Of a stretch of DNA of 64,000 nt, positions 2,911 to 30,565 are shown in pieces (positions within the stretch are counted from its first letter, which is position 1; the number at the start of each line of letters is the position of its first letter). Below the pieces are notes generated by a model that was given only the letters and a program-made list of their open reading frames with translations, searched no databases and had not been told where the DNA came from. Made by a program: the position numbers and the translations under genes. The DNA lies in contig CALXJJ010000004.1 of the NCBI GenBank assembly GCA_944388605.1, forward strand, positions 3,162-67,161, in the 5' to 3' direction. This DNA is from an uncultured Clostridia bacterium. GTDB lineage: Bacteria > Bacillota > Clostridia > TANB77 > CAG-508.

Positions 2911-3657
2911 TTAGAAAAATTTTTTTAAAAAACTGCTTTTTATTCTTTCCGGGGTTGGTATATCTATTTTTCTGTTTTCTAATATTGCCATTGGATTTAT
3001 TGTTGTTAATTGATTAATTTCATCATAAGTAATAAATTTAGAAAGTTCATTTAAAATTTTCTTCATATTATCATATGCAGAATATTCTCTATGTGCGTCA
3101 CTTCCCAAAAAATGTATTAATTTTGCTTTTAAAAGTTTTTGTAATGTTTTTTGTGCATTTTGACCATATTGTCCAATTATACTACCATAATTTGATTGGA
3201 ATAATACTCCTTTTTCTACTAAATCATAAACAAAATTTGGATTATTTTGCACAAATCTATACCTTTCAGGATGAGCTATAATTGGAATATAATTATTTTC
3301 AAATAAACTATATATAACATCTTCCATATAAATAACATTTTTATCCATTGGTAATTCAAACAAAACATAATCACTTCCTGCTAATGAGGATGCTTTATTT
3401 TGTTCTAAAAAATCTGTCATAAATTCAGAAATATATATTTCATTCCCTTGATGTAGAACTATATTTGTTTGTATTTCATCTAATCTTTTCTTTATTGCTA
3501 ATTTATCTAAATTATAATAATCTTCTATATAATGTGGAGTACAAATAATATCTGTAAAACCTGCTCCTTTAGCTTTTTCTATCATTATATATGTTTCATT
3601 TATACTTCTTGCTCCATCATCAACCTCATTTAAAATATGTGTATGAATATCTATCAT
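2911..3657 (-). CDS. Capsular polysaccharide phosphotyrosine-protein phosphatase, PHP family (CpsB/YwqE-like)
   Basis: 248 aa. N-terminal MIDIHTHIL...DDGA and internal CTPHY metal-binding motifs characteristic of CpsB/YwqE Mn-dependent Tyr phosphatases. Adjacent to the BY-kinase gene. Confidence 0.8.
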   Translation of the reverse strand: MIDIHTHILNEVDDGARSINETYIMIEKAKGAGFTDIICTPHYIEDYYNLDKLAIKKRLDEIQTNIVLHQGNEIYISEFMTDFLEQNKASSLAGSDYVLFELPMDKNVIYMEDVIYSLFENNYIPIIAHPERYRFVQNNPNFVYDLVEKGVLFQSNYGSIIGQYGQNAQKTLQKLLKAKLIHFLGSDAHREYSAYDNMKKILNELSKFITYDEINQLTTINPMAILENRKIDIPTPERIKSSFLKKFF

Positions 3658-3753: not shown

Positions 3754-4773
3754 TTAAAAGTTTATTAATGTCCGATTTTGTTCATCACTATTCTTTAATT
3801 TTGCTTTTTCTGCAGTTAAATAATCATTAAGTTGTTTCATTATTTTATCAGTCTCCGGACTAACGCTTTGTTTTTTATTTTCCTCTTTTTCATAATCAAA
3901 CATTTTATTTTTCTTAGGTGGTTGATAAGTATTTTGATTTTTGTGTTCTTTTTGAATTCTAGTAGCATTTGCCAATTCTTTTTCTCTGGCAATGGCAATA
4001 TCTTTTTTCCTTACTGGGTTATCTTTAATAACCTTCTTTGTTTTATTTTTTATTTCTTCTTTTTTTTCAAATGATCTATCTGAATTTCCATAATAATATG
4101 TTGATTGATATTTCTTTTTAGTAATTGGCATTTTATTAAGAACAACTCCAGCAATATGTCCTCCTACATTTCTTATATCCTTTTTAATTCTTTCCAATGT
4201 ATCTATTTTTGTTTCTTTATGAGCTGTCACAATTATAGTTGAATCTACAAATCTAGATATAATAACTGCATCTGTAACAATTGAGCTTGGTGTACCATCA
4301 AAAATTACTATGTCAAACATATTTTCTAGCATATTAATCATATTAACCATTTTCTCCGATACTAAAAGTTCTGATGGATTTGGTGGTATATTTCCTGCAG
4401 GAATAATATATAAATTTTTAATTTCCGTATTTTTTATATATACTTTTACATCATCTGGAAGTTCTTCTCCTCTTGAATTATATCCTACAAGATAATTGGA
4501 AAGTCCAGGAGTAGGGCTAACTCCGAAAATAGAAAATTGTCTTCCTTTTCTCATATCTGCATCCACTATTACTACTTTTTTATCTGCTTGCGCAAAAGTA
4601 ACTGCTAAATTTGCAGTAATCCAGCTTTTACCTTCTCCAGGGATAGTACTAGTTACTAATAAAGACTTTAGCTTTGATTTAGTGTTCATAAATTGTATGT
4701 TTGTTCTTAAAGTTCTAAACATCTCTGATACAGGAGATTTTGGATCTTTATATGTTATAAGTTCTTTTTTCAC
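3754..4773 (-). CDS. Tyrosine-protein kinase (BY-kinase, CpsD/YwqD-like) with a C-terminal Tyr cluster and an extra ~95-aa Lys/Glu-rich tail
   Basis: Walker A GEGKSWITANLA. Walker A' VVIVDADMRKG. Walker B IVIFDGTP. Tyr cluster STYYYGN. The start overlaps the stop of the upstream Wzz gene (ATGA at 4773). Confidence 0.8.
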   Translation of the reverse strand: MKKELITYKDPKSPVSEMFRTLRTNIQFMNTKSKLKSLLVTSTIPGEGKSWITANLAVTFAQADKKVVIVDADMRKGRQFSIFGVSPTPGLSNYLVGYNSRGEELPDDVKVYIKNTEIKNLYIIPAGNIPPNPSELLVSEKMVNMINMLENMFDIVIFDGTPSSIVTDAVIISRFVDSTIIVTAHKETKIDTLERIKKDIRNVGGHIAGVVLNKMPITKKKYQSTYYYGNSDRSFEKKEEIKNKTKKVIKDNPVRKKDIAIAREKELANATRIQKEHKNQNTYQPPKKNKMFDYEKEENKKQSVSPETDKIMKQLNDYLTAEKAKLKNSDEQNRTLINF

Positions 4774-5486
4774 TATCTTCTTCCTCCTTTATCATCTTGT
4801 GAATATAATGGTATTGTAGCTAATACTGTTAATTTTAAATTTTTTTCTATATCTTCTTCAGATTTTATGGTTGTATCTAGCATATTAGATATTAATACAT
4901 AAGCTATTGAAACAATAACTCCTATTGCCATAAAAATTGCTATATCTTTTATATGATTTATATTATATGGTTCTAAAGGAACTTCTGCTTCATCTACAAT
5001 ATGGACATTGTTTATGCTATAAATCCTTTCAACTTCAGCTGCAAAAGCTTTAACTATTTCTCCTGCAATAGCTTTAGCTTGTTGTGGATCTTCATGTACT
5101 ACATCTATTTGAATAATTTCTGTATCTTTTTTTTGAGAAACTGTTATCTTCTTCTTTAAACTTTCTTCTGTTTCATCTATTTTTAGATTTGAAATAACTT
5201 CTTTTAATACTCTTTTGCCCCTAATTAATTCACTATATGTTGAAACCAATTTCTGATTCAGTGTAATATCTGTTTGAGTAATACCTGTGGAAGTTCCTGT
5301 TTGGTCTTGTACTTGTTCATCATCTGTTTTAGCTAATACAAGTGTTGTTTCGGCTTTATATTCTGGCGTAACAAAAGCAAAAGAATAAATAATACCAATA
5401 ACAGCAAAAATTGCAATAATTAAAACAATATATATTCTTTTACTCCAAAAAATATTAAATAGACCTTTTAAATCTAATTCTTCCAT
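4773..5486 (-). CDS. Wzz/CpsC-type polysaccharide co-polymerase (chain-length determinant, BY-kinase activator)
   Basis: 237 aa. N-terminal TM helix (IYIVLIIAIFAVIGIIYSF), periplasmic coiled region, C-terminal TM helix. Translationally coupled to the BY-kinase. Confidence 0.8.
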   Translation of the reverse strand: MEELDLKGLFNIFWSKRIYIVLIIAIFAVIGIIYSFAFVTPEYKAETTLVLAKTDDEQVQDQTGTSTGITQTDITLNQKLVSTYSELIRGKRVLKEVISNLKIDETEESLKKKITVSQKKDTEIIQIDVVHEDPQQAKAIAGEIVKAFAAEVERIYSINNVHIVDEAEVPLEPYNINHIKDIAIFMAIGVIVSIAYVLISNMLDTTIKSEEDIEKNLKLTVLATIPLYSQDDKGGRR

Positions 5487-5726
5487 TTTCGTTGAATCAT
5501 TCCTTTCATTATCTTTAAAATTCGTACTATCAATTTTTTACCTTACTATTATATACTCATTATTGTGGTTTTGGCAATAGTTTATATTGATTTTATTCAA
5601 AAAACAAGAACAATAGCGTACTTCTTACATTTCTTCTACTTATAATATTTTATGAAAATTACTGTTTTCTATAATGAAATAAACTTATCATATCAATTTT
5701 AGATATAATAAGTTTATTAGCTTAAA

Positions 5727-6476
5727 TTATTTCATCATTGTTTTATATCTAATTATACAAAATACAGCAATAATAGTAATTATCAATATAGACCATAATA
5801 CAACTTGTGTAATTCCTGTTTGTGGCAATTTAGCATTAGATGTAGTACTATCTACTTTTATAACTTTATTTTCTACTTTATCACTCATAGTATTTTGCAT
5901 TTGATTTTCTTCTTCTGTAATATTTTGCGTAATCTCATTTTGTATTTGATTAGCATCTTCTTGTCCCTGTTCTTCACTAACACGTGTAATATTTACATCT
6001 ATTTCTACATCTGGAACTTCAACTTCAGTTCCATCTGTTCCTGAAACAATAATGTCTGATAATAATATTTTAGTTTTCATATTTTGATTAAAAGTATCTT
6101 TTAATTTAAAAGTCATTTCAGCAATAGTTGAATTAGATTTTGTTTCTGTGTTTCCTGCAATTAATAATACTTTTGTAGATGGATTATAATTTGCTTTATC
6201 CCATTCTTCGTAAGTTTTAATTGAGACCGAATCTATTACATCTTCATCATAAACTAAAAATGATTGATAACCAAGTACTGTTCCTTGTGTAACTCCTATT
6301 AAATTACCTATATTTAATTTTACAGTAAACTCATGTTCATTTGTTGGCACATTTACAATAGATGGTTCTAAATTTATCGGTATGCTTATTATTGAACCTA
6401 GTGAATATGTACTAAAACAACTTAAAGCTATTATTAAAGTAATTACTAAAATACAAACTTTTTTCATTTTTATCAT
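5727..6476 (-). CDS. LPXTG cell-wall-anchored surface protein with an N-terminal cohesin-like beta-sandwich domain
   Basis: Signal peptide MIKMKKVCILVITLIIALSC. C-terminal LPQTG followed by a hydrophobic helix and an RYKTMMK tail (sortase sorting signal). Residues ~30–165 (FTVKLNIGNLIGVTQGTVLGYQSFLVYDEDVIDSVSIK ... AEMTFKLKD ... ILLSDIIVSGTDG) fit the cohesin (PF00963) profile pattern. Confidence 0.55.
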   Translation of the reverse strand: MIKMKKVCILVITLIIALSCFSTYSLGSIISIPINLEPSIVNVPTNEHEFTVKLNIGNLIGVTQGTVLGYQSFLVYDEDVIDSVSIKTYEEWDKANYNPSTKVLLIAGNTETKSNSTIAEMTFKLKDTFNQNMKTKILLSDIIVSGTDGTEVEVPDVEIDVNITRVSEEQGQEDANQIQNEITQNITEEENQMQNTMSDKVENKVIKVDSTTSNAKLPQTGITQVVLWSILIITIIAVFCIIRYKTMMK

Positions 6477-6598
6477 TCTCCTTTTTATACAGAATACAAA
6501 ATATATAATTTATTTATATAATATCACAACATTATTTTTTTTTCTACAATATATTATATTAAGTTTGTATTACAAAAACATTACAAAAATATTACAGT

Positions 6599-8137
6599 TT
6601 AAACTTTGATTTTATTTTTTAGTTTACCTAATAATTTTTTTACATAATCTATTGCGTTTTTAAATGATTCATCTTTGTAAAAAGCTATTATTATTATTAT
6701 TGAACAAATAGCTACCATTAATATACCTTTTATAATAAAATTAAGCATTGAAACTCCATGTATTTGGTTAATTATTGTTTCACTTACAAATATCATTAAT
6801 AACAATACTATTAAAAATTTAAATTGCATTGTAAAATATCTTCGTGAACTTCTTTGAAATATTTTTTTATATAACATATAAGGTTGATACCAAAAGATTG
6901 TTAATAACTTAGCAATTGGAGTAGCAATTAATATTCCTAATAATCCTAATTTTAATCCTAGTAAAATTGATAGTATAATATTTAATATTGCTGTAAATAT
7001 TGATATATATTTAACATCTCTAAAAAGTCCTGTTGTATCTCTAAATACCCACATAGGATTTAACATTCCATTAATATAAAAACTAATAACTATTGCAATA
7101 ACTATAGAATTATTTAATATGTATTCCTTACCTATCCATAATTCTATAACATCTTTTGACAAAACTATTAATCCCACAGAAAAAATCGAAAACAGTACAA
7201 ATGCCATAAAATTTAATAATGAAAATACATTTACTTGTTTATCCCTATTATTTTCTGTATGCAAATTTCCTACACTAGCAGTTACAGCATTAAATATAAT
7301 TGAAATAGCAGTATTAATGCAATTAGTAATCATATTATAATTTGAATAATACCCTACCCATATTGTTCCTATCATGGCAGAAATAACAATATTAGGTGTA
7401 CTATTTAATATTACATTACTAAATTTAAAAATAAACATAGATTTTACATTTTGAAATAATACAAATTTTTCTTTTTTTCTCAATTCTTCATTTTTCTTTA
7501 TAAATGGATACATTTTATTTGCTTTATAAGCTATATATATGTTAGTTCCTAATGTTCCTAATAATTGTAAAATTAAATATAATATATAATTATGTGTTAA
7601 TAATAAAATAATAATTTGCAAGATAGTTTGAATTATATTAAATATTAAAGTATATAATTTAACTAAATACATTTTTTGATCTGCATTTATAATAGAACTT
7701 TTATATGCAAAGAAGTATGAAAAAGATGTATTAGCCAAAAATAATATAAAATATAATGTTAAATTTGGTATTTGAGAATCTGTTTTTACTAATACATCTA
7801 AAAAAGGTATTAGTATCAATCCTATAATAAATATTATAATTCCTATTATATTATATATTTTTTTATAAAATTGCATTAATGCTGCAAGTTTTCTTTCATC
7901 TTTTTTAGCTAATGGCTTATACATACTATAAATAATAGCATTTCCAAAACCTAATTCTGCTAATGATAATACTGTTAAAACATTTGTAAATAATCCATTA
8001 ATTCCTAAATATTCAGCTCCTAATGTTTTTATAAATACTGTTCTTGAAATAAACTGTAAAATTAAAACTGCAATTTGATTTCCAGCTCCGAAAAACATAT
8101 TACGTAATGAATTATATAGCCTTGATCTTTGCTCCAC
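6599..8137 (-). CDS. Oligosaccharide repeat-unit flippase Wzx (MOP/PST family)
   Basis: 512 aa, ~12–14 TM helices. N-terminal region NQIAVLILQFISRTVFIKTLGAEYLGINGLF is typical of PST-family flippases. Confidence 0.75.
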   Translation of the reverse strand: MEQRSRLYNSLRNMFFGAGNQIAVLILQFISRTVFIKTLGAEYLGINGLFTNVLTVLSLAELGFGNAIIYSMYKPLAKKDERKLAALMQFYKKIYNIIGIIIFIIGLILIPFLDVLVKTDSQIPNLTLYFILFLANTSFSYFFAYKSSIINADQKMYLVKLYTLIFNIIQTILQIIILLLTHNYILYLILQLLGTLGTNIYIAYKANKMYPFIKKNEELRKKEKFVLFQNVKSMFIFKFSNVILNSTPNIVISAMIGTIWVGYYSNYNMITNCINTAISIIFNAVTASVGNLHTENNRDKQVNVFSLLNFMAFVLFSIFSVGLIVLSKDVIELWIGKEYILNNSIVIAIVISFYINGMLNPMWVFRDTTGLFRDVKYISIFTAILNIILSILLGLKLGLLGILIATPIAKLLTIFWYQPYMLYKKIFQRSSRRYFTMQFKFLIVLLLMIFVSETIINQIHGVSMLNFIIKGILMVAICSIIIIIAFYKDESFKNAIDYVKKLLGKLKNKIKV

Positions 8138-8156
8138 AGTTACCCTCTTCTTTCTT

Positions 8157-9359
8157 TTATTTTTTCCAAAATTTATTTTTTAATTTTTCGTACATTTCTT
8201 GACTCAATATAGATTGCAAAAATCTTTTTATTTCTACTCTATTTGGTAAAATTCTACCTTTTATTTTGCAAATCAATGGTATTTTTATGTTATTTTTTTT
8301 CATTAATTTATATATATCTACAAAATTTTTATTCTTTTTATATTTTTGATGCATTAAGATAGTATAATTTTTATATTTTCTCTTTTTATATGCATCTAAG
8401 TCAAATACATTTTTATATAAATCTATTTTCTTTAATGCTTCTAATGCTAGCAAAGTTCTAACACATTTTTCACACTTTCCACAATTTTTGTCTTCATTAA
8501 AACACACATTTAAAGTATTATAAGATAATTTATAATTAGTTATTTGATCTATTTTTTCTAATCTAGTAAAAGACATCCCTGTAGAATAAAAAGTTATATT
8601 TTCATTACTTAACATATTAAGCGTATATATATCATAATATGCTGGATCTTTTTTTGATATTTCAAAATCCCATATAGGTATTCCTGATGCATAATAGTAA
8701 ACTTTAAATAATTTTTGAATTGCAAGTATAGCAGACATATTTCTAAATGTATGTGTTTCTACAAACGACATTTTTATATATTCGCTAATATTTGAATCTA
8801 TCATAATAAAATCAAATTTATTATTTTTTGCAAATTGTTCGCTTCTTTTCATTCTTTTCTCATATAATTCTCTTGCTTTTTCTCCTCCGAAATCTCCATG
8901 AGATCCCATATTTAACATAGTTAAAGTATTTACTTTCAGATTTTCTGGACAGTTATTTGATGTATACTGATATATTGTTTGTAAAGAATCTACACCACAT
9001 GAAATTCCTGTTCCTACTCTTCCTTCATTATATAATTCATCTTTACTAACATCTGAAAATATATTTATTTTATGATATTCAGTATGTGTTTTTGATAATG
9101 TTATGATTAAATTATTAACTAAATTACTATATAGTCTTGATGAAATTGGTTCTTCAGTTTTTATATCTTCACCTTTACTCATAGCAAATAATAATAATGC
9201 TATAACAAAAGAATCACTTCTTTCTGTACAAAAATACTTTCCATAATCTTTTCTCGTTTTATACCATAGTGTTTCATAATTACCATTATAACTTATTTTA
9301 CTTTTTAAATATGTATATTCATCGTCTTCTTCAATATATGGCTTACCTATTAATATCAT
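8157..9359 (-). CDS. PP-loop-like ATP-pyrophosphatase family protein, possible N-acetyl-sugar amidotransferase (tentative)
   Basis: 400 aa. GISCGVDSL resembles the SGGxDS PP-loop. C-terminal Cys cluster CFNEDKNCGKCEKC. Located inside the polysaccharide locus. No closer assignment is possible by eye. Confidence 0.35.
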   Translation of the reverse strand: MILIGKPYIEEDDEYTYLKSKISYNGNYETLWYKTRKDYGKYFCTERSDSFVIALLLFAMSKGEDIKTEEPISSRLYSNLVNNLIITLSKTHTEYHKINIFSDVSKDELYNEGRVGTGISCGVDSLQTIYQYTSNNCPENLKVNTLTMLNMGSHGDFGGEKARELYEKRMKRSEQFAKNNKFDFIMIDSNISEYIKMSFVETHTFRNMSAILAIQKLFKVYYYASGIPIWDFEISKKDPAYYDIYTLNMLSNENITFYSTGMSFTRLEKIDQITNYKLSYNTLNVCFNEDKNCGKCEKCVRTLLALEALKKIDLYKNVFDLDAYKKRKYKNYTILMHQKYKKNKNFVDIYKLMKKNNIKIPLICKIKGRILPNRVEIKRFLQSILSQEMYEKLKNKFWKK

Positions 9360-9381
9360 ATTTTATATTCCTTCTTTCTAA

Positions 9382-12300
9382 TTAGTATTTAGTATTTACT
9401 ATTTTATTCTTTAAAAGCATTACATCTGTAATATTTATATTTTTACTCATATTAAGATCAGCAGATAATTTTATTATATCATCTTTCCATTCATCTTCGA
9501 CAATATTTTTTTTCATTATCATTACATCTGTAATATTCACTTTTCCATCACTATTTAAATCTCCCAATACAATAATGTTATAGATTTTATTATCAGATGT
9601 AATCAAATTAATTCCTGTTTTAATTAAGTCGTCATCTTTTAGTTCATTCTGATTATCCAATAATTTATAACCAGAAAATAAATCAAAATAACTTGCAAAT
9701 TCTTGTTTTGTTTTTTTATTACAATTTAATATAATATTATCTCCTTCTAAAAAATAATCGTTATTTTCTTTTTCTATTATCTTAAACTCTACCTTTGTTT
9801 CATTTCCTGCTAAATCTCTTGCTTTTAATATATATGTACCTAATTCATCTATATTATCTCCATTATTATAGTTATCTACTACTTGTCCATCTTTTAATAA
9901 AACAATTTCACTCAAATTATCATCTTCTATTTGAGGTGTTACTGTTATATTTTGATAAGTCTTATTATTTTCTACATTTTTTATAATTGGAGCTAATTTA
10001 TCAATATTATTAACTTCTACTGTTTTAGTAAATTTTTTCCCTTTTATCGAATATTCAAATACAAATGTTCCATTATCTTTAAAAATATATTCATTATTTC
10101 CATCATTATTGACTATTTCTGTTTCGTTAGGTACATTTAAAACAACTATTACATCCTCATTTGTTAGGTCTTCTGTACTATATGAAACTGTTATAGGATT
10201 TTCATTAATATACTTATTAATATATATATCTGCAAATCTATTAGCCCAATCAGTTAAAATTTCTGCATGTTTATTATAGCTCGATACTAAACCATTTTTT
10301 ATAGGATTATTTTCTTCTAATTCACTAATATAGCAAGCTTTTTCATAATATTCTTTTGCAAAATTTAAAATTCTTATAGGATAATTTTCATTGATATTGT
10401 CAATATATTTTAAATTACCATTTACTATTTTTATTTTTTCTCCGGTTTCATTTAATGAAATGTTTTGAACATTTTCTGAAATTGTAATTATATCTTGATA
10501 TGATTCCCCTATAGTATCTAATGAATCCAAAAAAGAGCTTAATCTTTTATAATCTTCATCATTATTGCATTGAAATATTTCCATATATTTCATTCCCAAT
10601 TCATAATGTCTTTCCATTAATTGAATTGATTCATCATATGAAATATTTTCTAATTTCTTTATTTCTTCCTTTAATGATTCTATTTCATTATTTATATCTG
10701 AAGTTTCTTCCAATATATCAATATAATTTTTTGTTAATTCATCATATGAAGTTAATATTTTATTTGATATTGCTTGACTAAAATATTTTTTATCTTGTCC
10801 ATATAAATAAATTGGTGAATAAGAAATATTTATTTTTCCATTATCTATTTGTACATCATTACCATATAAATCTTTTACATAACAATTACTTATTTCTAAT
10901 GAATAGTTTTTATCCTTTTGTTTACTCCATAATATTAAAAGTGGTTCTCCATTTTTATTATAAACATAAGTTTCAACTCCATTAATTAAAGATATATTTC
11001 CTATAAATTCTGCTCCATTAATATTTTCATAACAATTTTTTAGTGCATAGTACGATAATTTTGGTGTATAATTATTATTTAGAATTCCGAAATTTTGCTC
11101 TTTGCTATTTCTGTCATTTCCCATATTCCAAGAACTATATAAAATTGACAAATCTATTCCATAATCATCATTTATTATTGTTCTTTGCACATCTATTATA
11201 GCTTGATCTTCTTCAGTTACATTTTCGTAAGAAGAAATTCCAAATTCTGTAATATAATTTTTTGTAAATCCACCTATTTTATTTATAATTTTTGAATTTT
11301 TTTCTAACTGCTCTTTATATCTTGTATTTAATTCACCAATATTATTACTATCATATGGATGATATGAAAATGCATCTGAATATTGGTATGCTCCATTATC
11401 TGATATATTCTCTATAAATTCTGATGATTCTATCACATATGATGTAGTTTTGTCTGGCACAGCACATACTCCACTTATTATGTCTATCTCTGAATTTATT
11501 TGTTTTAAAGCTTCTGACACTTGTTTAACTAATTGTATATATTGATTAATCTGCTCATCTGTTCTATAATCAAAATTTGGTTCATTTAAAATTTCATACT
11601 TAACTATTTGAGGATATTTCTTTGCAATTGCTACAGCAAAATTTACAAATTTTTTTCTTTCTTCTTCATTATCAATTATTTCATTTTCTCCTGCTAATGT
11701 GCCTACACCATTCAGAATTGCAACTATTTCTATATTGTTTTCTGTAGCCTTTTTTATCCAGTCGTCATAATAATCAAATTGATAATCTCCATTCCCCTTA
11801 TCAATCTTTCTCCATAAAAAATCTGCTCTAATATATTTAATTCCTGAATTTTTTAATAAATCGAAATCATTTTCATATTTTTCCCAAGTTCCATCTCTAT
11901 AATGGACTGCAAAACCTCTATTACTTAATTCATCCATAAATTGCTTTTCATATGGTTTCAAATATTCAACCTCTGCCTTACCTTCATATATTAATTCTTG
12001 CCCATTTCTATATATTTTGACTGTTATTATATTTACGCCTTGATTTAATTCTATTGTTTTCATTGTTTTTTCACTAACTATTTTTTCTTGTTTTTCATTA
12101 CCTTTCTCATCAAAAACAAGATTATATGTATTATTTTCTTGAATATTGTCAATATTAATATGTAAATCTGCTTGTGAGTCTGTTATTTTTCGTTCTTCTA
12201 TAAAAATGTCAAAATTTTCATTACTTATATTTTCCATATTGTTTTTAACTTGAATTTTATCTTGTGAATATAATATTACTTTTTCTTCTGACTTTTTATT

Positions 12301-12405
12301 AAATAAAATTATAATCAATATTAAAATTACAATTAAAATAGTTAATATCAATACAATTAATTTCTTTAATGGTATCTCTTTAATCTTATGCATTTTAACC
12401 CCCAT
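9382..12405 (-). CDS. Glycoside hydrolase family 5 enzyme with N-terminal signal/anchor, Ig-like spacer domains and a C-terminal type-I dockerin
   Basis: GH5 catalytic signatures are all present: the Arg in YIRADFLW, the acid/base in YEILNEPNF, the His-x-Tyr in SYHPYD, and the nucleophile in ITEFGIS. The last ~65 aa carry a duplicated dockerin Ca-binding motif: GDLNSDGKVNITDVMIMKKNIV ... ADLNMSKNINITDVMLLKNKIV. Confidence 0.7.
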   Translation of the reverse strand: MGVKMHKIKEIPLKKLIVLILTILIVILILIIILFNKKSEEKVILYSQDKIQVKNNMENISNENFDIFIEERKITDSQADLHINIDNIQENNTYNLVFDEKGNEKQEKIVSEKTMKTIELNQGVNIITVKIYRNGQELIYEGKAEVEYLKPYEKQFMDELSNRGFAVHYRDGTWEKYENDFDLLKNSGIKYIRADFLWRKIDKGNGDYQFDYYDDWIKKATENNIEIVAILNGVGTLAGENEIIDNEEERKKFVNFAVAIAKKYPQIVKYEILNEPNFDYRTDEQINQYIQLVKQVSEALKQINSEIDIISGVCAVPDKTTSYVIESSEFIENISDNGAYQYSDAFSYHPYDSNNIGELNTRYKEQLEKNSKIINKIGGFTKNYITEFGISSYENVTEEDQAIIDVQRTIINDDYGIDLSILYSSWNMGNDRNSKEQNFGILNNNYTPKLSYYALKNCYENINGAEFIGNISLINGVETYVYNKNGEPLLILWSKQKDKNYSLEISNCYVKDLYGNDVQIDNGKINISYSPIYLYGQDKKYFSQAISNKILTSYDELTKNYIDILEETSDINNEIESLKEEIKKLENISYDESIQLMERHYELGMKYMEIFQCNNDEDYKRLSSFLDSLDTIGESYQDIITISENVQNISLNETGEKIKIVNGNLKYIDNINENYPIRILNFAKEYYEKACYISELEENNPIKNGLVSSYNKHAEILTDWANRFADIYINKYINENPITVSYSTEDLTNEDVIVVLNVPNETEIVNNDGNNEYIFKDNGTFVFEYSIKGKKFTKTVEVNNIDKLAPIIKNVENNKTYQNITVTPQIEDDNLSEIVLLKDGQVVDNYNNGDNIDELGTYILKARDLAGNETKVEFKIIEKENNDYFLEGDNIILNCNKKTKQEFASYFDLFSGYKLLDNQNELKDDDLIKTGINLITSDNKIYNIIVLGDLNSDGKVNITDVMIMKKNIVEDEWKDDIIKLSADLNMSKNINITDVMLLKNKIVNTKY

Positions 12406-12448: not shown

Positions 12449-13510
12449 TTATTTTAAAATTTTATCCAACTCTTCAAAATGTTTATTTGCTTTATGCTTC
12501 TCTTCTTGTAAATCTGCTTCAACTATTTGGTTATCTAAAATTATTTCATCAATATTCATATTCTTTAAATTTTCTTTAGTATATAATTTACCTTTAAAAT
12601 TCAAATCTTTTAATATGTTCACAGTTTTATTATTATATGCTATTGGAATAATTTTCTTATTCATTAAAATTCCTAAAATATTTGCATGAAACCTAGTTCC
12701 AACAATTATCTCAGATTGTTGTAATTCTTCCAATGCTTCTTTTATATTTCCATTATAATAATAATTTTGAACTTTTATGTCATTCATTTTGCTTTCTATC
12801 CTTTCTATTGCTTGTTCATCACCTTCTGCTTTACAAAATGACATATACATTATTTCATAACCTTTATTATAAAATTCTCTTGTTAATTCTATTATTTTTT
12901 CTTCATATATTTTTGCATCTTTTTCATTTGCTTTTTTATACCAATCAATAATTGAAAATATTACTCTTTTTTTGCTTTTTTTCTCATTATTTAATTCCAT
13001 AGCAAATACGATGTCTGTTGTATATCTAACATTATTTAAAAAATTGCATAAATCATATGAAGCTTTATCTCTAAATGAAACTACTTGTGCATTTTTAAAA
13101 ACTTCATCTATCAATAATGGTATATATTCTTTATCTGTATATGGTCCTATATTACATCCCAATATATAATATGGAATATATGGTGATTTATATTGTTTTA
13201 CATTTTTTTGCCAATAATCCATATTATGATTCTCCATGAAAATAGATCCTCCAATATAAACCATATAATCCTTATTAATTTTTAAAATACGTTCTACTAA
13301 ATTATATTCTTTAAATATCTTGCCTATTTTATTAATTAATTTATACTTAAACCCACTATATATGTGTATATTTGAATAATTATTTATATTATATTTATAA
13401 TTGCTTGTAGCATAAATACTAACATTAGGATATCTATTTAGAAACATATCTAAAAAAATATCATCACCTAAGTTTTTATTTAAACATATTTTTAAATATA
13501 CCTTTTTCAT
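12449..13510 (-). CDS. Polysaccharide pyruvyl transferase family protein (CsaB/WcaK-like)
   Basis: 353 aa. N-terminal NLGDDIFLDM and C-terminal IVGTRFHANILGIL match the PF04230 pyruvyl-transferase pattern. Confidence 0.6.
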   Translation of the reverse strand: MKKVYLKICLNKNLGDDIFLDMFLNRYPNVSIYATSNYKYNINNYSNIHIYSGFKYKLINKIGKIFKEYNLVERILKINKDYMVYIGGSIFMENHNMDYWQKNVKQYKSPYIPYYILGCNIGPYTDKEYIPLLIDEVFKNAQVVSFRDKASYDLCNFLNNVRYTTDIVFAMELNNEKKSKKRVIFSIIDWYKKANEKDAKIYEEKIIELTREFYNKGYEIMYMSFCKAEGDEQAIERIESKMNDIKVQNYYYNGNIKEALEELQQSEIIVGTRFHANILGILMNKKIIPIAYNNKTVNILKDLNFKGKLYTKENLKNMNIDEIILDNQIVEADLQEEKHKANKHFEELDKILK

Positions 13511-13522
13511 ATATTACTCCTT

Positions 13523-14632
13523 TTATACTATATTTAATATTTCTGAAGTATATGGATATGTTTCTCCATAATTTAATCTTATAAACATATAATACCAATA
13601 AAAAAGTAAAACACCAACAATATATAATTTCACTATATTGCCATATTTATTATTTTTCGTAACTTTAAATATTTGTGGTAAGAGTAAAATATAATAAAAT
13701 CCAAAATAAAAAGAAATTCTCTGAACATATGATGCTAACATTCCTGTTTGTAATAAAATGAAATCTAATATAATAATAAATAATAAAAATCTATTAGTAG
13801 AATTATATTCATTTAATTTTTTTGAATATATAACAATAGGTAATAATAGCATAATTTTCAATATTGTTTCTGATATAGGTATTGATATTTCACCTGTTGG
13901 AATATGTATAGCATATTTTACTGGCAAAATTCCATAATCATATATTAAAGCACTTAATATAGTTCCATAATTTGCAATTGCAATACAAACTAATATTATA
14001 ATAAAATATACTCTTACTTTATGTTTATATTCTTTTCCAAGAATCCTTTTTACAACATAAATTAATCCTGCTACAAATGCTGTAGAATGAAATAATGTTG
14101 CTATTATAATTGTTATAATATATTTTAGTTTTTTATCTTGGTCAATATATCTAAAAGCAAAAAACGTAATAGCAAGAGCTAAACTCTGTCTAATTAAATT
14201 AAATGTTCTATTATAATATAATGTTAAAAAAACTAATAGTCCAACCCACATTGGAATTTTTTTTCTATAGTAATATATTGTCATATATACCAATGTTACT
14301 ATAATTGCTTCTACTATAAACATAAAAATATGCAAATTGTTTGTAACAAAAGCTACACAATAGTTTAATAGTGTATATAAAAATTCTGATTGCACACTCA
14401 AACTATATTCACTAAAACTTGTTGCCATTGTTGCCAATCTAAAAGAACTTTCCATGTAAACTCGCACATCTGTTCCAACTGTATTATCTCTAACCCCTGC
14501 TAATAATGATAATATTGTAATAACACATACAGATAATAATATTCCCAATGAATTCTTTTTTTCTTTAAATGCTAATTGAGCAATATATGTTAAAAAAATT
14601 GCTATTGCAAAAATTAATAGATATATATACAT
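13523..14632 (-). CDS. EpsG/Wzy-type polysaccharide polymerase (multi-TM)
   Basis: 369 aa, ~10 TM helices with one larger loop. Sits in the locus position expected for a repeat-unit polymerase. Confidence 0.6.
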   Translation of the reverse strand: MYIYLLIFAIAIFLTYIAQLAFKEKKNSLGILLSVCVITILSLLAGVRDNTVGTDVRVYMESSFRLATMATSFSEYSLSVQSEFLYTLLNYCVAFVTNNLHIFMFIVEAIIVTLVYMTIYYYRKKIPMWVGLLVFLTLYYNRTFNLIRQSLALAITFFAFRYIDQDKKLKYIITIIIATLFHSTAFVAGLIYVVKRILGKEYKHKVRVYFIIILVCIAIANYGTILSALIYDYGILPVKYAIHIPTGEISIPISETILKIMLLLPIVIYSKKLNEYNSTNRFLLFIIILDFILLQTGMLASYVQRISFYFGFYYILLLPQIFKVTKNNKYGNIVKLYIVGVLLFYWYYMFIRLNYGETYPYTSEILNIV

Positions 14633-14644
14633 TTCTTTTCTCCA

Positions 14645-15670
14645 CTATTTATTTTTAATCTTTGTTAATATATATACAATATAATAACATTTTAATTTTA
14701 ATAATAAAAATATTATCTTTTGTTTAAAATTTAAAAATTTAATTGTATTTAATTTCATTGCATTTTTATATGCTTGTTTTTTCAGTACTTTTTTCAATAA
14801 ATTTTTTTTATCCTTATATTTAGATATATTTTTTTCATTATATATTTGAGTTAAAATTGCACTTAATAATAACTCCCAATATAATAATTGTATTGCTTTT
14901 TTTAACTTTTTATTTTTATTTTTTTCAAATAATTTATTTATTACCTTTATAGTAGCTTCATTTTTTGTTAATTTATTATCATCATATTTTTTAGTAACTG
15001 ATTCTCCATTCTGAAAGTAGTGATATAAATATTCATTAAAAAATATAATTGTATTTACTTTATTTATTGCTTGCAAAAATAAGACTGTATCTTCCTGTAT
15101 ACTCAAATTTTCCTGAAACTTTATATTATTATCAATTAAAAATTTTGTTAAAAATATTTTACTCCAACATCCTCTTATTTTTCCATATTTTACTTTTTTA
15201 TTAAAATATGGAAATAGTATATCACATTCAATTTCATTTTTTTCTTTTTCTCCTGCTAAAATAATATCTGTAATAAAACTTTCTCTTTTTATTTCTTTAT
15301 CATTGTGAGAAAAATAATAATTAAATTGACCTATTTGTGCATTATAATCTTCCATATATTTTATACATATTTCAACTGCATTATTTTCTATCCAGTCATC
15401 AGAGTCTACAAACATAATGTATTTGCCATTTGCACTTTTTATTCCTCTATTTCTAGCCACTGATACTCCCTCATTTTTCTTATGTATAAACTTTATTCTA
15501 TCATCTCTTTTCGCATATTCTTCACAAATATTAAATGTATCATCAGTAGAGCCATCATCAATAATTATAATTTCAATATTTTTATAAGTTTGATTGCAAA
15601 TACTATTTATACACCTTTTTAAATATTTTTCTGAATTATATGTTGGTATAATTATACTTACTTTTTCCAT
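14645..15670 (-). CDS. Family 2 glycosyltransferase
   Basis: N-terminal VSIIIPTYNSEKYLKRCINSICNQTY...IIIIDDGSTDDT and a DSDD motif (FVDSDDW). Confidence 0.85.
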   Translation of the reverse strand: MEKVSIIIPTYNSEKYLKRCINSICNQTYKNIEIIIIDDGSTDDTFNICEEYAKRDDRIKFIHKKNEGVSVARNRGIKSANGKYIMFVDSDDWIENNAVEICIKYMEDYNAQIGQFNYYFSHNDKEIKRESFITDIILAGEKEKNEIECDILFPYFNKKVKYGKIRGCWSKIFLTKFLIDNNIKFQENLSIQEDTVLFLQAINKVNTIIFFNEYLYHYFQNGESVTKKYDDNKLTKNEATIKVINKLFEKNKNKKLKKAIQLLYWELLLSAILTQIYNEKNISKYKDKKNLLKKVLKKQAYKNAMKLNTIKFLNFKQKIIFLLLKLKCYYIVYILTKIKNK

Positions 15671-15751
15671 ATTCCCTCACATTTCTTTCTATGGCTCAAA
15701 TCAGATTAAAAAATTTAAATTTTCATATAATTTAATATAATTTTTCTCGTC

Positions 15752-16486
15752 CTACTCTTTATCTTTTAAATATTTCTCATAATAATTCGATTTTTTCACA
15801 GCCCTTTTTCTTGCTAATATTAGATATCTGTCTTGCCCAATTAATATCTTTATGAATTTAATTAAAAATTTTTTTATTTTAGATTTTTTTATCCAACTAC
15901 CAGCAAAATAATGTATACTATATCCTCCGTTTTGTCCTTTATATGGACATGTAAAATATTCTTTTGGATATATATGAACATTCCCATTATCAAATATTTG
16001 TTCTTTATTATTTAGTTTAAAATCTTTATATTTTCCAATAAAAAAATTATTAAATAAATGATTATTATTATAAATTTCTCCTAATTTCATTGTTTTATAT
16101 GTGTCTAATAAATTTTTGATTGTACTATTATTTTTTTCACACCCTATTACTGCAGTTGATAATACACAATCGTATTCAAATCCAACAAAAAATTTATTTT
16201 GTAATATTTCATTTGAAAATTTTTTTCTTGTTTCAACATCTGTATCTAAATATATACCTCCATTTTCATATAAAATCTTTAACCTAAAATAATCACTCAC
16301 AAATGCCCACTTTTTTTCTTTTGCTGCTTGTTTTATATATTCATTTTCTTCAAGATTACAATTGTTTTCATTCCATTCTATTATTTCAAAATCTTTATTT
16401 ATTTTCCATGACTCTATACATTTTTTTGTTAAATTATCTTTATCATGATTTCCAAACCAACAATAATGTATCTTTCTCTCTATCAT
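15752..16486 (-). CDS. GT32-like glycosyltransferase with DXD motif (Gly_transf_sug / OCH1-like)
   Basis: IHYCWFG...FVSDYFRLKILYENGGIYLDTDVE, a typical PF04488 signature. Confidence 0.7.
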   Translation of the reverse strand: MIERKIHYCWFGNHDKDNLTKKCIESWKINKDFEIIEWNENNCNLEENEYIKQAAKEKKWAFVSDYFRLKILYENGGIYLDTDVETRKKFSNEILQNKFFVGFEYDCVLSTAVIGCEKNNSTIKNLLDTYKTMKLGEIYNNNHLFNNFFIGKYKDFKLNNKEQIFDNGNVHIYPKEYFTCPYKGQNGGYSIHYFAGSWIKKSKIKKFLIKFIKILIGQDRYLILARKRAVKKSNYYEKYLKDKE

Positions 16487-16505
16487 ATAAATTTATTTCC
16501 CTTCA

Positions 16506-17690
16506 CTATTTTTTTATTTTATTAAGTATTTTCGTCCTATATAATACTGGCTTTAATATTGCCTTTATTTTATCCTTATATGTAATTTTTGCACATATAT
16601 TTAATGCATATAATAAACCTTTTTTATTATATTCTTCAAAAAATCTACTCCTATTTATATTTTGCTTAGGATTATTTAAAATAGCTGTAATTTTTCCGTT
16701 AGCATTTTGTTCTAATCCTTTATCTAGAGTAATTTCAAATGATTTAATATTAGATAATGAATCAAATAACTCTTTTCCTTTATTAGTATTAATTAGTACT
16801 ATATTTACTCCTTTATCTGCATCTAGTTCATATTCTTTTATTATTCTATCAGCATGCCAAAGATCTCCAATTGATATATCAGCTTGTCTATTCATCCCTC
16901 TGAAATTACAATTATAACATACAGGTCTTGAAATTAATTCATTTACAAATAGTTTAAGCATAATATCAGATTCATGTCCTTTATTATATTGTTTTCCATT
17001 TCTAAATTTCATAGACAAAGTTGTACTATGAAAACCATATGTTTTCTTTCTAAAATAAATCTCTTCTATTTTTGTTTTGTTTCTCTTTTCTTGATATTCT
17101 AAATAACTATTCCATATTTTTGGTGAAGGAACTCCCTTACAAAATATTTCAACACAATATAACAAGTCATAATCTTTATTTAAAAAGCTCTTTAATCCTG
17201 CTATTTGACAAGGAGTACCAGAAAATAATACTTTTTTTCCATCATTTAACTGTTGTTTTATATTTTTATATATATTTCCTATTCTACTTTGCACATATTT
17301 TGATCCTCTTAATTTTTTAATATCTTCCTTTGTTTCTATTTTATTATGAATCACTTTAAAATTTGAATCAAACATAGCACCATAAACTATTCCATTTTGC
17401 TCTAATATTTTTTCAGCTAACATTGTAAATATTCCACCAGAAGTACTTTTCCATCTTATATTTTCATCTTGATTAGATGCTGCTAATACAATTGATTTTT
17501 CTTCATTTCTCTTCATTTCTTTATTATTTGGGCAAATTTTTTTGCACATACCACAATTAATACATTTTTTTTCGTCTATTTGTGGATATAAAAAACCTTC
17601 TTTATCTTCTACCATATTAATTGCATTTTTAGGGCATATATTATAACATGCTTCACAACCAGTGCATTTATTTTTTTCTATTATTTCCAT
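16506..17690 (-). CDS. Coenzyme F420-hydrogenase beta-subunit-like (FrhB-like) 2x[4Fe-4S] protein, usual partner of pyruvyl transferases in EPS loci
   Basis: Two ferredoxin CxxCxxCxxxCP motifs at the N-terminus (CTGCEACYNICP, CINCGMCKKICP). 394 aa. Immediately downstream of, and translationally abutting, the pyruvyl transferase (the stop at 17691 is adjacent to the start at 17690). Confidence 0.65.
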   Translation of the reverse strand: MEIIEKNKCTGCEACYNICPKNAINMVEDKEGFLYPQIDEKKCINCGMCKKICPNNKEMKRNEEKSIVLAASNQDENIRWKSTSGGIFTMLAEKILEQNGIVYGAMFDSNFKVIHNKIETKEDIKKLRGSKYVQSRIGNIYKNIKQQLNDGKKVLFSGTPCQIAGLKSFLNKDYDLLYCVEIFCKGVPSPKIWNSYLEYQEKRNKTKIEEIYFRKKTYGFHSTTLSMKFRNGKQYNKGHESDIMLKLFVNELISRPVCYNCNFRGMNRQADISIGDLWHADRIIKEYELDADKGVNIVLINTNKGKELFDSLSNIKSFEITLDKGLEQNANGKITAILNNPKQNINRSRFFEEYNKKGLLYALNICAKITYKDKIKAILKPVLYRTKILNKIKK

Positions 17691-18854
17691 CTATATTATT
17701 CCTTCCTGTTTTAATGCATTTTCTAGGTAATTATCTGACTTTTTCTTCATTTCTTTTAATTTTTCTCGTGTATTACAATAATCAATTTTTATGCTAATCT
17801 TATCTAAAACTTTATCATAATCTGTATAAAGTCTATCTTCTAAGCCTAACAATGATAAAATAGATTTCAACCTTGTATTAGTTGAAGCCTTTTGACCTTC
17901 TTTGAATCTGTTAAAAGTATAAAATTCTTTTTCATACATAATAGAAAATGCTGTACAATGAAATGAATCTGTACATACTATTTCTGCATTTTTTATAAGG
18001 TTTATCATTTCTGCTGGTCCCACATCATACATTTTTACATCTGCATATTGTTCATCCTCTTTTACTAATTCATCTATATGTGGTAAAGCTACAATATCAT
18101 ATCCTGTTTTTTCTTTGATTCTTTTCACAATTTTTCTATGTTCAGGGTTATTACCTAAAAAGTAGCAAAATATATATTTTTTAGCATATATAGGTTCTTT
18201 TGGTTGCATATTTTCCCAATCATTAATACTAAGCATAAAAGTTGGATCTAATACTACAGGAACATCTTTTCCTGTTAATTCTTTTACTATTTTCTTACCT
18301 GTTTCTTCTCTTACAGAAATATGTTGTATTCTATTTAAGTATATTTTTGTCGCTTCTTTTTGTTTCTCTGGAATTTCAGATACTCCGAAGCTTGGAGCAT
18401 ATGTTATTTTAGGTATATTATCATCTATAAATTCCATTGTAAAATAATGATTTTCTATATTATCTGGATGCCATAATTGGTCACTTCCAAGTACAAAAGC
18501 TCTATAGTCATTAGAACCATTTTTTAAAGCGTCATATCCTAAATATGGTTTTGATATTTTTATATGTTCTTTAGTAAACTGTTCAAATTTATTACTACGA
18601 ATTTTAAAATTTTTTCCATATTTCTCATAATTTAGTTTTCCTATTATTTTTCTTTTAAAATTTTTAAATTGTACTTTTCTTATATTTTTATTACATAACT
18701 TTTTTGCATATACGAAAAGCTGATTTTTCTTTACATATTGGATATTTTCACACTCTATGCCTTTATTTTCAATCATTTTTTGAACAGCATATGCTTGTAA
18801 CATACTCCCATAATTTTTAACATAATAGCATGAAACAATTCCAACTTTTTTCAT
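17691..18854 (-). CDS. Polysaccharide pyruvyl transferase family protein
   Basis: 387 aa. MKKVGIVSCYYVKNYGSMLQAYA at the N-terminus and IVCTDSFHCTAFSI at the C-terminus match the PF04230 pattern. Confidence 0.7.
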   Translation of the reverse strand: MKKVGIVSCYYVKNYGSMLQAYAVQKMIENKGIECENIQYVKKNQLFVYAKKLCNKNIRKVQFKNFKRKIIGKLNYEKYGKNFKIRSNKFEQFTKEHIKISKPYLGYDALKNGSNDYRAFVLGSDQLWHPDNIENHYFTMEFIDDNIPKITYAPSFGVSEIPEKQKEATKIYLNRIQHISVREETGKKIVKELTGKDVPVVLDPTFMLSINDWENMQPKEPIYAKKYIFCYFLGNNPEHRKIVKRIKEKTGYDIVALPHIDELVKEDEQYADVKMYDVGPAEMINLIKNAEIVCTDSFHCTAFSIMYEKEFYTFNRFKEGQKASTNTRLKSILSLLGLEDRLYTDYDKVLDKISIKIDYCNTREKLKEMKKKSDNYLENALKQEGII

Positions 18855-19978
18855 AGTAATTCCTCCTCGTATTTATTTTCATATATTTCTTCAATTTTTT
18901 TGATATTTTCTATTCTATCATATCCCATATTTTTTATTAATTCTACTTTATCTTCTCTTTTTTTCTTAGAGAATTTTATTATTTCATTAACCCATTTTTC
19001 TATGTCATCGTCTAAATTTAAAATACTAACATTATCATGTATCAATATTGCTTCTTTAGGTATATTTTCTGATATAACACATGGCAAACCTGTCGACTCA
19101 GCTTCTATTAGTACTATTCCTAATCCCTCATACAAAGATGGAAATACAAATACATCCATCATTTGCATAAGATTATTAACATCACTTCTCGTTCCCAAAA
19201 ATATAATATTTTCTTCTATATTCATATTTATTGCCTGCTGTTTAATACTATCTTGTAATTCTCCCTCTCCTACCAGTATTAATTTTACATTTTCAACTTG
19301 TTTTGTTAATTCTTTTAATAATTTCAATAAAAAGATATGATTTTTTTGTTTTACAAACCTTGCCACATTTCCTATTACTAAACTATCTTGTAAATTAAAT
19401 TCTTTTCTATATTTATTTCTAATATCTAAACAATAATGATATTTTTCAGTATCAATTCCATTATTTATTATATCTATTTTATTTTTTTTACCAAAGCAAA
19501 AATCTCCTGCTTTAGTTGAACATGCAATATATTTTATACCTTTAACTTTTACAATTAATTTACTTATATTATGTATTAAACTTTTTATTTTAAACTTATC
19601 ATTATCAATACCTGAATTATGTGCATGTAAAATAATATTACTCATACCAACATTTTTTGCCATTTTTGCATAAATTAGTCCTATTCCATTATATGTATTT
19701 ATATGTATTATATCAGGTTTGATTTTTTCTATTTTTTGTTTAAATACTTTCATATTCTCTATTATTCTTTTCATCGGATTACTATATTTCTGTGAAAGTG
19801 TTTCTATTATATTACAATTTGCTAATTTTAATCTCTTATCATAAACTTCTGTTTCTTTTTGAGAAACCAAAATTATTGGTATAAATTTTTCTCTATTTAT
19901 TTTTTCTACAATATTAGTAATTAAAGACTCTATTCCACCTGCACACCATCTTTCTGTGTATATTAATACTTTTTTCAC
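18851..19978 (-). CDS. Family 4 (GT-B) glycosyltransferase
   Basis: 375 aa. C-terminal EGLGIVLIEAESTGLPCV retaining-GT4 motif. 4-nt overlap with the downstream gene. Confidence 0.7.
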   Translation of the reverse strand: MKKVLIYTERWCAGGIESLITNIVEKINREKFIPIILVSQKETEVYDKRLKLANCNIIETLSQKYSNPMKRIIENMKVFKQKIEKIKPDIIHINTYNGIGLIYAKMAKNVGMSNIILHAHNSGIDNDKFKIKSLIHNISKLIVKVKGIKYIACSTKAGDFCFGKKNKIDIINNGIDTEKYHYCLDIRNKYRKEFNLQDSLVIGNVARFVKQKNHIFLLKLLKELTKQVENVKLILVGEGELQDSIKQQAINMNIEENIIFLGTRSDVNNLMQMMDVFVFPSLYEGLGIVLIEAESTGLPCVISENIPKEAILIHDNVSILNLDDDIEKWVNEIIKFSKKKREDKVELIKNMGYDRIENIKKIEEIYENKYEEELL

Positions 19979-19992
19979 TTTTTACCTCTCAT

Positions 19993-23712: not shown

Positions 23713-23727
23713 TTGTCTCCTCCTAAT

Positions 23728-30539: not shown

Positions 30540-30565
30540 ACAAAATTATTGCTAGGGTTTATTTT
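30527..30565. terminator. Stem-loop aaacccta...tagggttt followed by a T-run; shared terminator for convergent genes
   Basis: 8-bp stem, 14-nt loop, then atttttt. Confidence 0.45.

Follow-up and report, generated by a model that had tools for sequence, protein, structure and literature searches.

We describe here a cohesin-dockerin pair that is encoded within a capsule or exopolysaccharide (EPS) biosynthesis locus of an uncultured gut Clostridia bacterium, on a 64-kb stretch of contig CALXJJ010000004.1 (this whole stretch is called the window below). The pair is composed of a hydrolase of 1007 amino acids (aa), which ends in a type-I dockerin, and of a 249-aa wall-anchor protein, which carries a single cohesin domain and a sortase signal. 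Both genes are located on the minus strand, and the gene of a 400-aa protein and the Wzx gene lie between them. Comparison of sequences and of structure models leads us to consider it rather probable that the hydrolase is a membrane-anchored, PslG-like endoglycanase whose dockerin docks on the sortase-anchored cohesin, and which would process the nascent EPS. A first-pass annotation of this DNA, made from the letters alone, had proposed that a hydrolase of glycoside hydrolase (GH) family 5 is displayed on the cell wall by a dedicated cohesin anchor. The part of this proposal that concerns the tethering of an EPS-locus hydrolase to the wall through cohesin and dockerin is strongly supported by synteny, by natural replacement and by co-variation, to which the presence of a sortase in the locus adds; the part that concerns plain wall display is not.

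Family and anatomy of the hydrolase

The hydrolase gene extends from 9382 to 12405 (minus strand). Its start is likely M5, which gives a protein of 1003 aa, as judged from ribosome-binding-site spacing and from the genes called in L001, a contig that is near-identical. A family profile was built from 15 homologues (alignment A1) and compared to the PDB. The best matches were PslG (2.3e-21) and GH39wh2 (5jvk, 4.6e-20), whereas GH5 endoglucanases were matched at just 3.8e-6, over a partial barrel (aa 175-311). The AlphaFold2 (AF2) model of the hydrolase, with a predicted local distance difference test (pLDDT) score of 82, was searched with Foldseek: 5jvk is the top match (1.5e-22), over 521 columns which cover an N-terminal sandwich, the barrel and a C-terminal sandwich, and PslG is the second-best, with a template-modelling (TM) score of 0.76. 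Both 5jvk and PslG are endo-acting members of GH39 (PMC6933502). From its sequence profile as well as its modelled fold, the hydrolase is a predicted endo-GH39 enzyme of the PslG/GH39wh2 type.

The GH5 identity given in the first-pass annotation was consequently rejected: Pfam returned no GH5 match (PF00150, Cellulase) at E<=1, GH5 structures were matched weakly and partially, and no GH5 enzyme was a good fold match. Pfam gave a sub-threshold match to GH42 (20.7 bits for a cutoff of 21), and a search of NCBIfam gave no name for this protein. The catalytic motifs listed in that annotation (NEP, TEFG, H-x-Y and an Arg) are all present; they are not GH5 signatures, however, since they mark the whole clan GH-A, whose catalytic pair consists of an acid/base Glu (in NEP) on strand 4 and a nucleophile Glu on strand 7. 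The corresponding residues are conserved in A1: R193, N274/E275 (NEP), H349/Y351 and E387 (TEFG). Among the 15 homologues E387 is invariant and E275 is kept in at least 90%. These two residues align with the corresponding Glu residues of PslG, which we regard as E165 (acid/base) and E276 (nucleophile). In one homologue (P0004) the acid/base Glu is replaced by Lys (EVLNKPN, A1 columns ~345-351), and this protein may be inactive. In another locus (L032, 9767-13148) the GH gene is found in two open reading frames (ORFs), through a frameshift or an assembly error.

The protein starts with a transmembrane signal-anchor (aa 13-36; 12298-12369, minus strand), modelled by AF2 as a helix over the same residues. 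This hydrophobic stretch of about 20 residues is conserved across the family (A1) and is devoid of an A-x-A cleavage site, which suggests that it stays uncleaved, as in PslG. The catalytic (beta/alpha)8 barrel (aa 150-462; 11020-11958, minus strand), delimited from AF2 and Foldseek, is flanked by two beta-sandwiches, one N-terminal (aa 63-148) and one C-terminal (aa 466-535), as in GH39wh2. It is followed by a stalk (9568-10788, minus strand) which AF2 models as a helical bundle (aa 540-735) and three beta domains (aa 739-946); this stalk, about 400 aa long, is conserved across the hydrolase family (A1). Since the catalytic head is followed by the stalk and then by the dockerin, the head is expected to be membrane-proximal and the dockerin distal.

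Type-I dockerins are defined by a duplicated segment of about 22 residues, composed of an EF-hand-like calcium loop (D or N at positions 1, 3, 5, 9 and 12) followed by a helix. Two such loop/helix repeats, DLNSDGKVNITD and DLNMSKNINITD, are present at the C-terminus of the hydrolase (aa 947-1002; 9400-9567, minus strand), the second loop having a Ser at position 5. The Pfam model Dockerin_1 (PF00404) matches aa 947-1002 with 41 bits for a cutoff of 22.9, PDB searches return solved type-I dockerins, and three helices are seen at this place in the AF2 model. The duplicated type-I dockerin reported in the first-pass annotation is thus confirmed.

The cohesin wall-anchor protein

The gene of the wall-anchor protein extends from 5727 to 6476 (minus strand), and its product has a signal peptide followed by a cohesin domain, by a linker and by an LPQTG signal. 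The same two types of evidence, ribosome-binding-site spacing and the gene calls in L001, point to the ATG at 6467 as the likely start of the gene, which gives 246 aa. The cohesin domain (aa 30-168; 5973-6389, minus strand) is matched by PF00963 with 24.4 bits for a cutoff of 24.1 (aa 50-156), a marginal result when taken alone. A PDB search with the single sequence gave no match, and a search of NCBIfam gave no name for the protein. Two close relatives were found by a k-mer protein search, and 97 representative clusters, mostly of about 160-300 aa, by an exhaustive HMMER search. Most full-length relatives share one layout: a cleavable-looking signal peptide, the domain, a low-complexity linker, a [LIM]Px[TA]G motif, a transmembrane segment and a basic tail. 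Pfam Cohesin is matched by 26 of 64 family members (best E 7.8e-12) and no other family recurs. Compared to the PDB, the profile of the family matched cohesins alone, weakly (E 0.03-0.75).

The AF2 model built on the alignment of these relatives has a pLDDT above 90 over aa 30-170. When this model was compared to the PDB with Foldseek, the top 17 matches were all cohesins, with TM scores of 0.70-0.74 for the best ones; these are 2vo8 and 2jh2, from NanJ and NagJ of C. perfringens, whose cohesins are non-cellulosomal. As modelled, the N-terminal domain of the anchor has the cohesin fold, i.e. a flattened beta jelly-roll. The assignment of a cohesin domain in the first-pass annotation is therefore upheld, by the marginal Pfam match, by the Pfam matches of the family and by a Foldseek list headed by cohesins exclusively; a different fold, which that annotation had named as an argument against its own proposal, is not what the model indicates.

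The cell-wall sorting signal (5730-5828, minus strand) reads LPQTG-ITQVVLWSILIITIIAVFCII-RYKTMMK, i.e. the LPQTG motif (5814-5828), a hydrophobic segment and a basic tail. P218 and G221 of the motif are invariant in 61 relatives. The signal peptide and the sortase signal noticed at first pass are borne out, the sorting signal being canonical.

Association of dockerin and cohesin among related loci

With the hydrolase as query, about 16 homologues were retrieved, with 32-39% identity. Species-representative genomes were then scanned, which brought in 25 further loci, all from metagenome-assembled genomes (MAGs) of uncultured gut Clostridia (human, rabbit and other sources). Our own hidden Markov models (HMMs) of the cohesin, the dockerin, the GH, the sortase, the LAYTG protein and the 282-aa membrane protein were run over all ORFs of the loci. 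Synteny was counted on 21 distinct loci that have a dockerin-bearing GH and enough downstream DNA. In these EPS loci of uncultured gut Clostridia the GH39 homologue has 35-41% identity, and in 20 of the 21 a gene for a cohesin-[LIM]Px[TA]G protein is located downstream of it, at a distance of 0.1-6 kb. Next to this cohesin gene, most loci have the genes of the LAYTG protein, the sortase and the 282-aa membrane protein, and then Wzz-CpsD-CpsB; in the window and in a few other loci it directly abuts Wzz. Neither of the two dockerin-less homologues is accompanied by a cohesin gene, and the co-occurrence of cohesin and dockerin (20/21 vs 0/2, Fisher p ~0.012) is therefore beyond chance.

The two dockerin-less GH39 homologues, in L023 (7562-11455, 1297 aa) and L024 (9785-13627, 1280 aa), terminate in LPLAG or IPLAG followed by a transmembrane segment and a basic tail, and no cohesin gene was found within 10 kb on either side. 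A sorting signal is thus present where both dockerin and cohesin are missing, so that the dockerin plus cohesin-LPXTG pair appears interchangeable with direct sortase anchoring. This natural replacement is the strongest argument that the pair would tie the C-terminus of the enzyme to the wall. The tail of the L023 protein (GKYSKYKKDTKKQ, which contains KYKKDTKKQ) resembles that of one subfamily of cohesin anchors (for example L008, P0041 and P0053), a likeness which might reflect a shuffling of domains between the cargo and the anchor.

Co-variation of the modules was analyzed by comparing distance matrices with Mantel tests. Over 17 non-redundant loci, dockerin and cohesin distances are strongly correlated (r=0.78, p=1e-4), and remain so when Wzz is controlled for (partial r=0.72, p=1e-4). 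Over the same 17 loci, the dockerin and the catalytic domain of the same polypeptide show no significant correlation (r=0.13). Over 13 loci, the distances of the catalytic domain are correlated with those of the Wzy polymerase (r=0.42, p=0.0012), and Wzy distances are uncorrelated with those of Wzz, dockerin or cohesin. This pattern therefore supports a division of the locus into two evolutionary modules: Wzy with the GH head, which would be polymer-specific, and dockerin, cohesin and Wzz, which would belong to anchoring and machinery. As samples are small and identity distances crude, we take these results as supportive and not as decisive. They would fit an enzyme that acts on the polymer of its locus and docks on the anchor of its locus. 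The two modules lead to testable predictions, namely that the catalytic head tracks Wzy and that the dockerin tracks the cohesin.

The locus also encodes a sortase, within a trio of genes (22861-24892, minus strand) located in the window at the upstream end of the locus, opposite from the cohesin gene. The first gene (24353-24892) encodes a second sortase substrate, a small helical protein with LAQTG, a transmembrane segment and a basic tail. It is about 179 aa long from an internal Met, its ORF extends to 25000, and it is recognized by its own HMM with 156 bits; its orthologues end in LAYTG, and a search of NCBIfam gave no name for it. The sortase gene (23728-24360; Pfam Sortase, 83.6 bits), whose start overlaps the LAQTG gene, encodes a protein nearest to class D (NCBIfam SrtD, 109.6 bits, below the cutoff of 140), in the translation of which His, Cys (TCYPF) and Arg are present. 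The third gene (22861-23712) encodes a multi-spanning membrane protein of 283 aa (own HMM, 183 bits), for which no Pfam or NCBIfam family was matched. This protein always follows the sortase and is conserved in at least 15 loci. A second sortase gene is located about 7 kb past the end of the window, in the near-identical contig L001.

Proposed mechanism and alternative explanations

The following scheme can be proposed. The locus would make a pyruvylated Wzx/Wzy capsule or exopolysaccharide and would encode, along with it, a kit that positions a PslG-like endo-glycanase in the envelope. The GH39 enzyme would insert in the membrane via its signal-anchor, with the catalytic head near Wzy/Wzz, as for PslG, and its stalk of about 400 aa would carry the type-I dockerin outward. 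The dockerin would bind, in a calcium-dependent manner, the single cohesin of the small secreted protein, which a sortase would couple covalently to peptidoglycan through LPQTG. The acting sortase would most likely be the class-D-like one of the locus, or possibly the second one ~7 kb away. The enzyme would then trim, release or quality-control the nascent polymer of the cell itself. For PslG, which is a periplasmic endoglycosidase in a Wzx/Wzy pathway, a failsafe role on nascent polymer has been proposed (PMC13434223), and it is by analogy with this proposal that a trimming or proof-reading role is suggested for the GH39 enzyme. We infer the cohesin-dockerin binding, the retention of the transmembrane anchor, the acting sortase and the substrate from sequences and models. 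This scheme departs from the simple wall display of the first-pass annotation: because the N-terminal membrane anchor is conserved and looks uncleaved, the hydrolase is probably tethered at both ends.

Several observations weigh against this scheme. The cohesin of the window clears the Pfam cutoff by just 0.3 bits, retention of the transmembrane anchor is judged from the missing A-x-A site alone, the correlation between GH and Wzy is modest and based on 13 loci, and all relatives are MAGs or metagenome contigs. One locus, L027 (9761-12742), is the sole one with a dockerin-bearing GH39 and no cohesin within 10 kb. L027 still has the LAYTG protein, the sortase, the membrane protein and Wzz; its dockerin is the most divergent (47 bits vs ~80-100). 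Finally, related anchors are found beside other cargo, so that the GH may have to share its anchor.

This last point leads to a first alternative, in which the anchor would be a general wall scaffold, like ScaE or Limousia cSca5, with many dockerin clients encoded throughout the genome, the GH39 enzyme being one of them and the position in the EPS locus being incidental. The wider family of cohesin anchors was sampled, and four distant anchors had usable contigs. L044 (1671-4911) contains two tandem anchors and a leucine-rich repeat (LRR) protein with a dockerin, with Wzz alongside. In L047 (565-2249) a cohesin-dockerin adaptor adjoins a cohesin-LPYTG anchor. In L046 and L048 the genes after the anchor are those of the LAYTG protein, of the sortase and of the membrane protein, then Wzz-CpsD-CpsB, and no dockerin gene is seen in the DNA available. 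Furthermore, a second dockerin protein, of 512 aa, is encoded near the EPS-locus cohesin anchor of L014 (17927-19465), and some members of the anchor family themselves carry dockerins. All this would be expected of a scaffold with several clients and, given the LRR-dockerin protein and the cohesin-dockerin adaptor found next to related anchors, a "dedicated" anchor, as the first-pass annotation had it, is not established. However, the four distant anchors with adequate contigs are all in EPS loci (4/4), the co-variation of dockerin and cohesin is far above what shared locus history explains, the loss of the dockerin coincides with the absence of the cohesin, and the 64 kb of the window contain a single dockerin and a single cohesin. 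We regard a general scaffold as unlikely, without being far-fetched. Cohesin anchors in EPS loci seem to occur generally in this group of bacteria, and their cargo varies.

A broader picture, which we put forward tentatively and also regard as unlikely, makes the GH39 a two-point trans-envelope enzyme within a conserved, sortase-dependent "wall module". This module would be composed of the cohesin anchor, the LAYTG protein, the class-D-like sortase and the 283-aa membrane protein, and would coordinate the export, the length control or the retention of the capsule across the Gram-positive wall, with interchangeable dockerin cargo (hydrolase, LRR protein or adaptor). It would do so in place of the LytR-CpsA-Psr (LCP) ligase, for which no gene was found in the locus (window 2911-25000), although CpsB, CpsC and CpsD are present.

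It is improbable that the GH39 enzyme serves for nutrient harvesting, i.e. that it acts at the surface on dietary or host glycans and not on the cell's own EPS, in a minimal unit similar to a cellulosome or mucinolysome. The nearest structure, GH39wh2, does come from a gut Bacteroides, display by cohesin and dockerin is classically catabolic, and the cellulosome literature includes GH39 enzymes with dockerins. Against this, all loci have the gene within the EPS operon, flanked by Wzy/pyruvyl-transferase genes on one side and by Wzx/Wzz on the other, its catalytic domain co-varies with Wzy, and the protein has a PslG-like N-terminal membrane anchor; the carbohydrate-binding module (CBM), transporter and regulator typical of catabolic loci were not seen in the annotation of the locus. 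A cellulosome proper, with a multi-cohesin scaffoldin that bears a CBM and with numerous dockerin-bearing enzymes for plant cell walls, was rejected: in the 64 kb of the window there are a single dockerin and one protein with a single cohesin, and CBMs are absent.

Lastly, that the cohesin-like domain is a carbohydrate-binding capsule retainer replacing the LCP/CpsA ligase, the dockerin of the GH having another role or none, would account for the resemblance of the cohesin jelly-roll to CBM folds, for the missing LCP gene and for the anchors that have no dockerin partner in the flanks available, but it is very improbable given that the top fold matches are dockerin-binding cohesins and not CBMs, that dockerin and cohesin strongly co-vary and that a direct sorting signal replaces the dockerin in L023 and L024.

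If the cohesin and the dockerin of the preferred scheme, that of a PslG-like enzyme docked on the sortase-anchored cohesin, bind each other as predicted, Gram-positive bacteria could position a PslG-type failsafe or trimming glycanase in the wall zone. This would bear on the reason why EPS operons encode hydrolases, and would widen the range of cohesin-dockerin functions to envelope biogenesis. It could also provide, for surface display and for capsule or biofilm removal, a set of orthogonal cohesin-dockerin pairs that have co-evolved naturally, as well as EPS glycanases matched to serotypes.

Organization of the EPS locus and of the window

The G+C content of the window is about 25%, and nearly all of its coding sequence is on the minus strand. 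Pfam matches and annotation of the ORFs from ~2911 to 25000 on this strand give the gene set of a Gram-positive Wzx/Wzy capsule/EPS locus, so that the context indicated for both genes at first pass is borne out by their neighbours. The upstream flank is the arginyl-tRNA synthetase gene (25040-26746), from which the order of the EPS genes runs downstream. The trio of genes described above is followed by the EPS synthesis genes (12449-22857, minus strand), which span from VanZ to the second pyruvyl transferase. After the 283-aa membrane protein, these are VanZ, the priming transferase (Bac_transf), two GT4 glycosyltransferases, a pyruvyl transferase and an FrhB-like Fe-S protein, then two glycosyltransferases (Gly_transf_sug and GT2), the EpsG-type Wzy (13523-14632, minus strand) and the second pyruvyl transferase, after which comes the 1007-aa hydrolase. 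Between the hydrolase and the Wzx-type flippase (6599-8137, minus strand; Polysacc_synt PF01943, 40 bits) is the gene of a 400-aa protein with a CGKCEKC motif (8157-9359, minus strand), for which no Pfam or NCBIfam family was matched. Among the compared loci it is present only in the window and in L001, and it is therefore probably a serotype-specific modification enzyme. Beyond the cohesin gene the order ends, on the minus strand, with Wzz/CpsC (4773-5486), the tyrosine kinase CpsD (3754-4773) and the phosphatase CpsB (2911-3657), and then with the phosphoglucomutase gene.

The two pyruvyl transferases and the FrhB-like 4Fe-4S protein are encoded at 12449-13510, 16506-17690 and 17691-18854. 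The pairing of pyruvyl transferase and FrhB-like protein recurs in related loci, and in L007 both are fused in one protein of 760 aa. This pairing suggests that the EPS of the locus is pyruvylated (ketal-modified).

A scan of the region for promoters and terminators gave 88 sites for 98 expected from shuffled sequences, i.e. no excess. The best sigma-70-like match of the region (TTGCCA-18-TATAAT, 11/12; 5548-5577, minus strand) is the only strong -35/-10 pair between the cohesin gene and wzz, which are 240 bp apart, and wzz-cpsD-cpsB may have a promoter of their own. No RNA family was found in the window with Rfam. Just beyond the EPS locus, a protein of 686 aa (28092-30152, minus strand), in which fn3-like and GH85_C-like segments are repeated, may be a further surface protein. 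The window also contains genes of the spoIIIA operon (30559-35951, with SpoIIIAA at 35049-35951 and SpoIIIAH at 30559-31200) and, at 44905-47635 and 59160-63759, B12-binding radical-SAM and SPASM radical-SAM genes and two P-type ATPases, one of which has an HMA domain. The spoIIIA operon indicates a spore-forming host, and the window as a whole indicates ordinary chromosome of a spore-forming Clostridium-like bacterium.

Comparison with known systems

The closest counterpart of the hydrolase is PslG, from the psl operon of Pseudomonas aeruginosa: it is the best profile match, its catalytic Glu residues are aligned and it belongs to an EPS operon of the Wzx/Wzy type. In PslG an N-terminal membrane anchor adjoins the catalytic domain, as is predicted for the hydrolase of the window. 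PslG differs in being a periplasmic protein of 442 aa, of about 17% identity, in a Gram-negative bacterium, and in having neither stalk nor dockerin, whereas the hydrolase of the window belongs to a Gram-positive host and has 470 aa of stalk plus dockerin added. GH39wh2 of Bacteroides cellulosilyticus WH2 (5JVK) shares the sandwich-barrel-sandwich layout and the endo-acting groove, but has no membrane anchor, stalk or dockerin; to our knowledge it does not come from an EPS synthesis locus.

As regards the anchor, ScaE of Ruminococcus flavefaciens has the same succession of signal peptide, one cohesin, linker and LPXTG, anchors dockerin partners, and is represented by 2zf9 among the fold matches. 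The single-cohesin LPXTG wall anchor cSca5 of Limousia is of the same architecture (PMC12997984). Both serve catabolic multi-enzyme complexes, respectively a cellulosome and a mucinolysome, whereas the anchor of the window lies inside a biosynthetic EPS operon, beside Wzz, with its predicted partner in the same operon. The NagJ, NagH and NanJ modules of C. perfringens provide the closest cohesin structures, in a low-GC Clostridium, and are an example of cohesin-dockerin interactions outside plant-fibre degradation. They differ in that they join secreted toxins and enzymes degrading host glycans to each other, without any EPS-locus wall anchor.

Glycanases that process the polymer of their own pathway and are encoded together with its biosynthesis genes include ExoK/ExsH in Sinorhizobium, PlyA/B in Rhizobium, PssZ in Listeria and CcsZ in C. 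difficile. These are secreted, periplasmic or plainly membrane-anchored, and we know of no such EPS glycanase with a cohesin-dockerin pair or a sortase-linked receptor. The textbook setting of cohesin-dockerin pairs is that of catabolic machines, cellulosomes and lately mucinolysomes. Literature searches gave no account of such pairs in loci for EPS or capsule. Taken singly, all components are already known: type-I dockerins and cohesins, single-cohesin LPXTG anchors, non-cellulosomal modules in C. perfringens, and PslG-type hydrolases of EPS operons. What appears to be new is their combination, i.e. a predicted cohesin-dockerin pair and a sortase module in a biosynthetic EPS operon, in about 20 species of uncultured gut Clostridia. 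It suggests that docking of the cellulosome type has been reused to place a polysaccharide-processing enzyme in the cell envelope.

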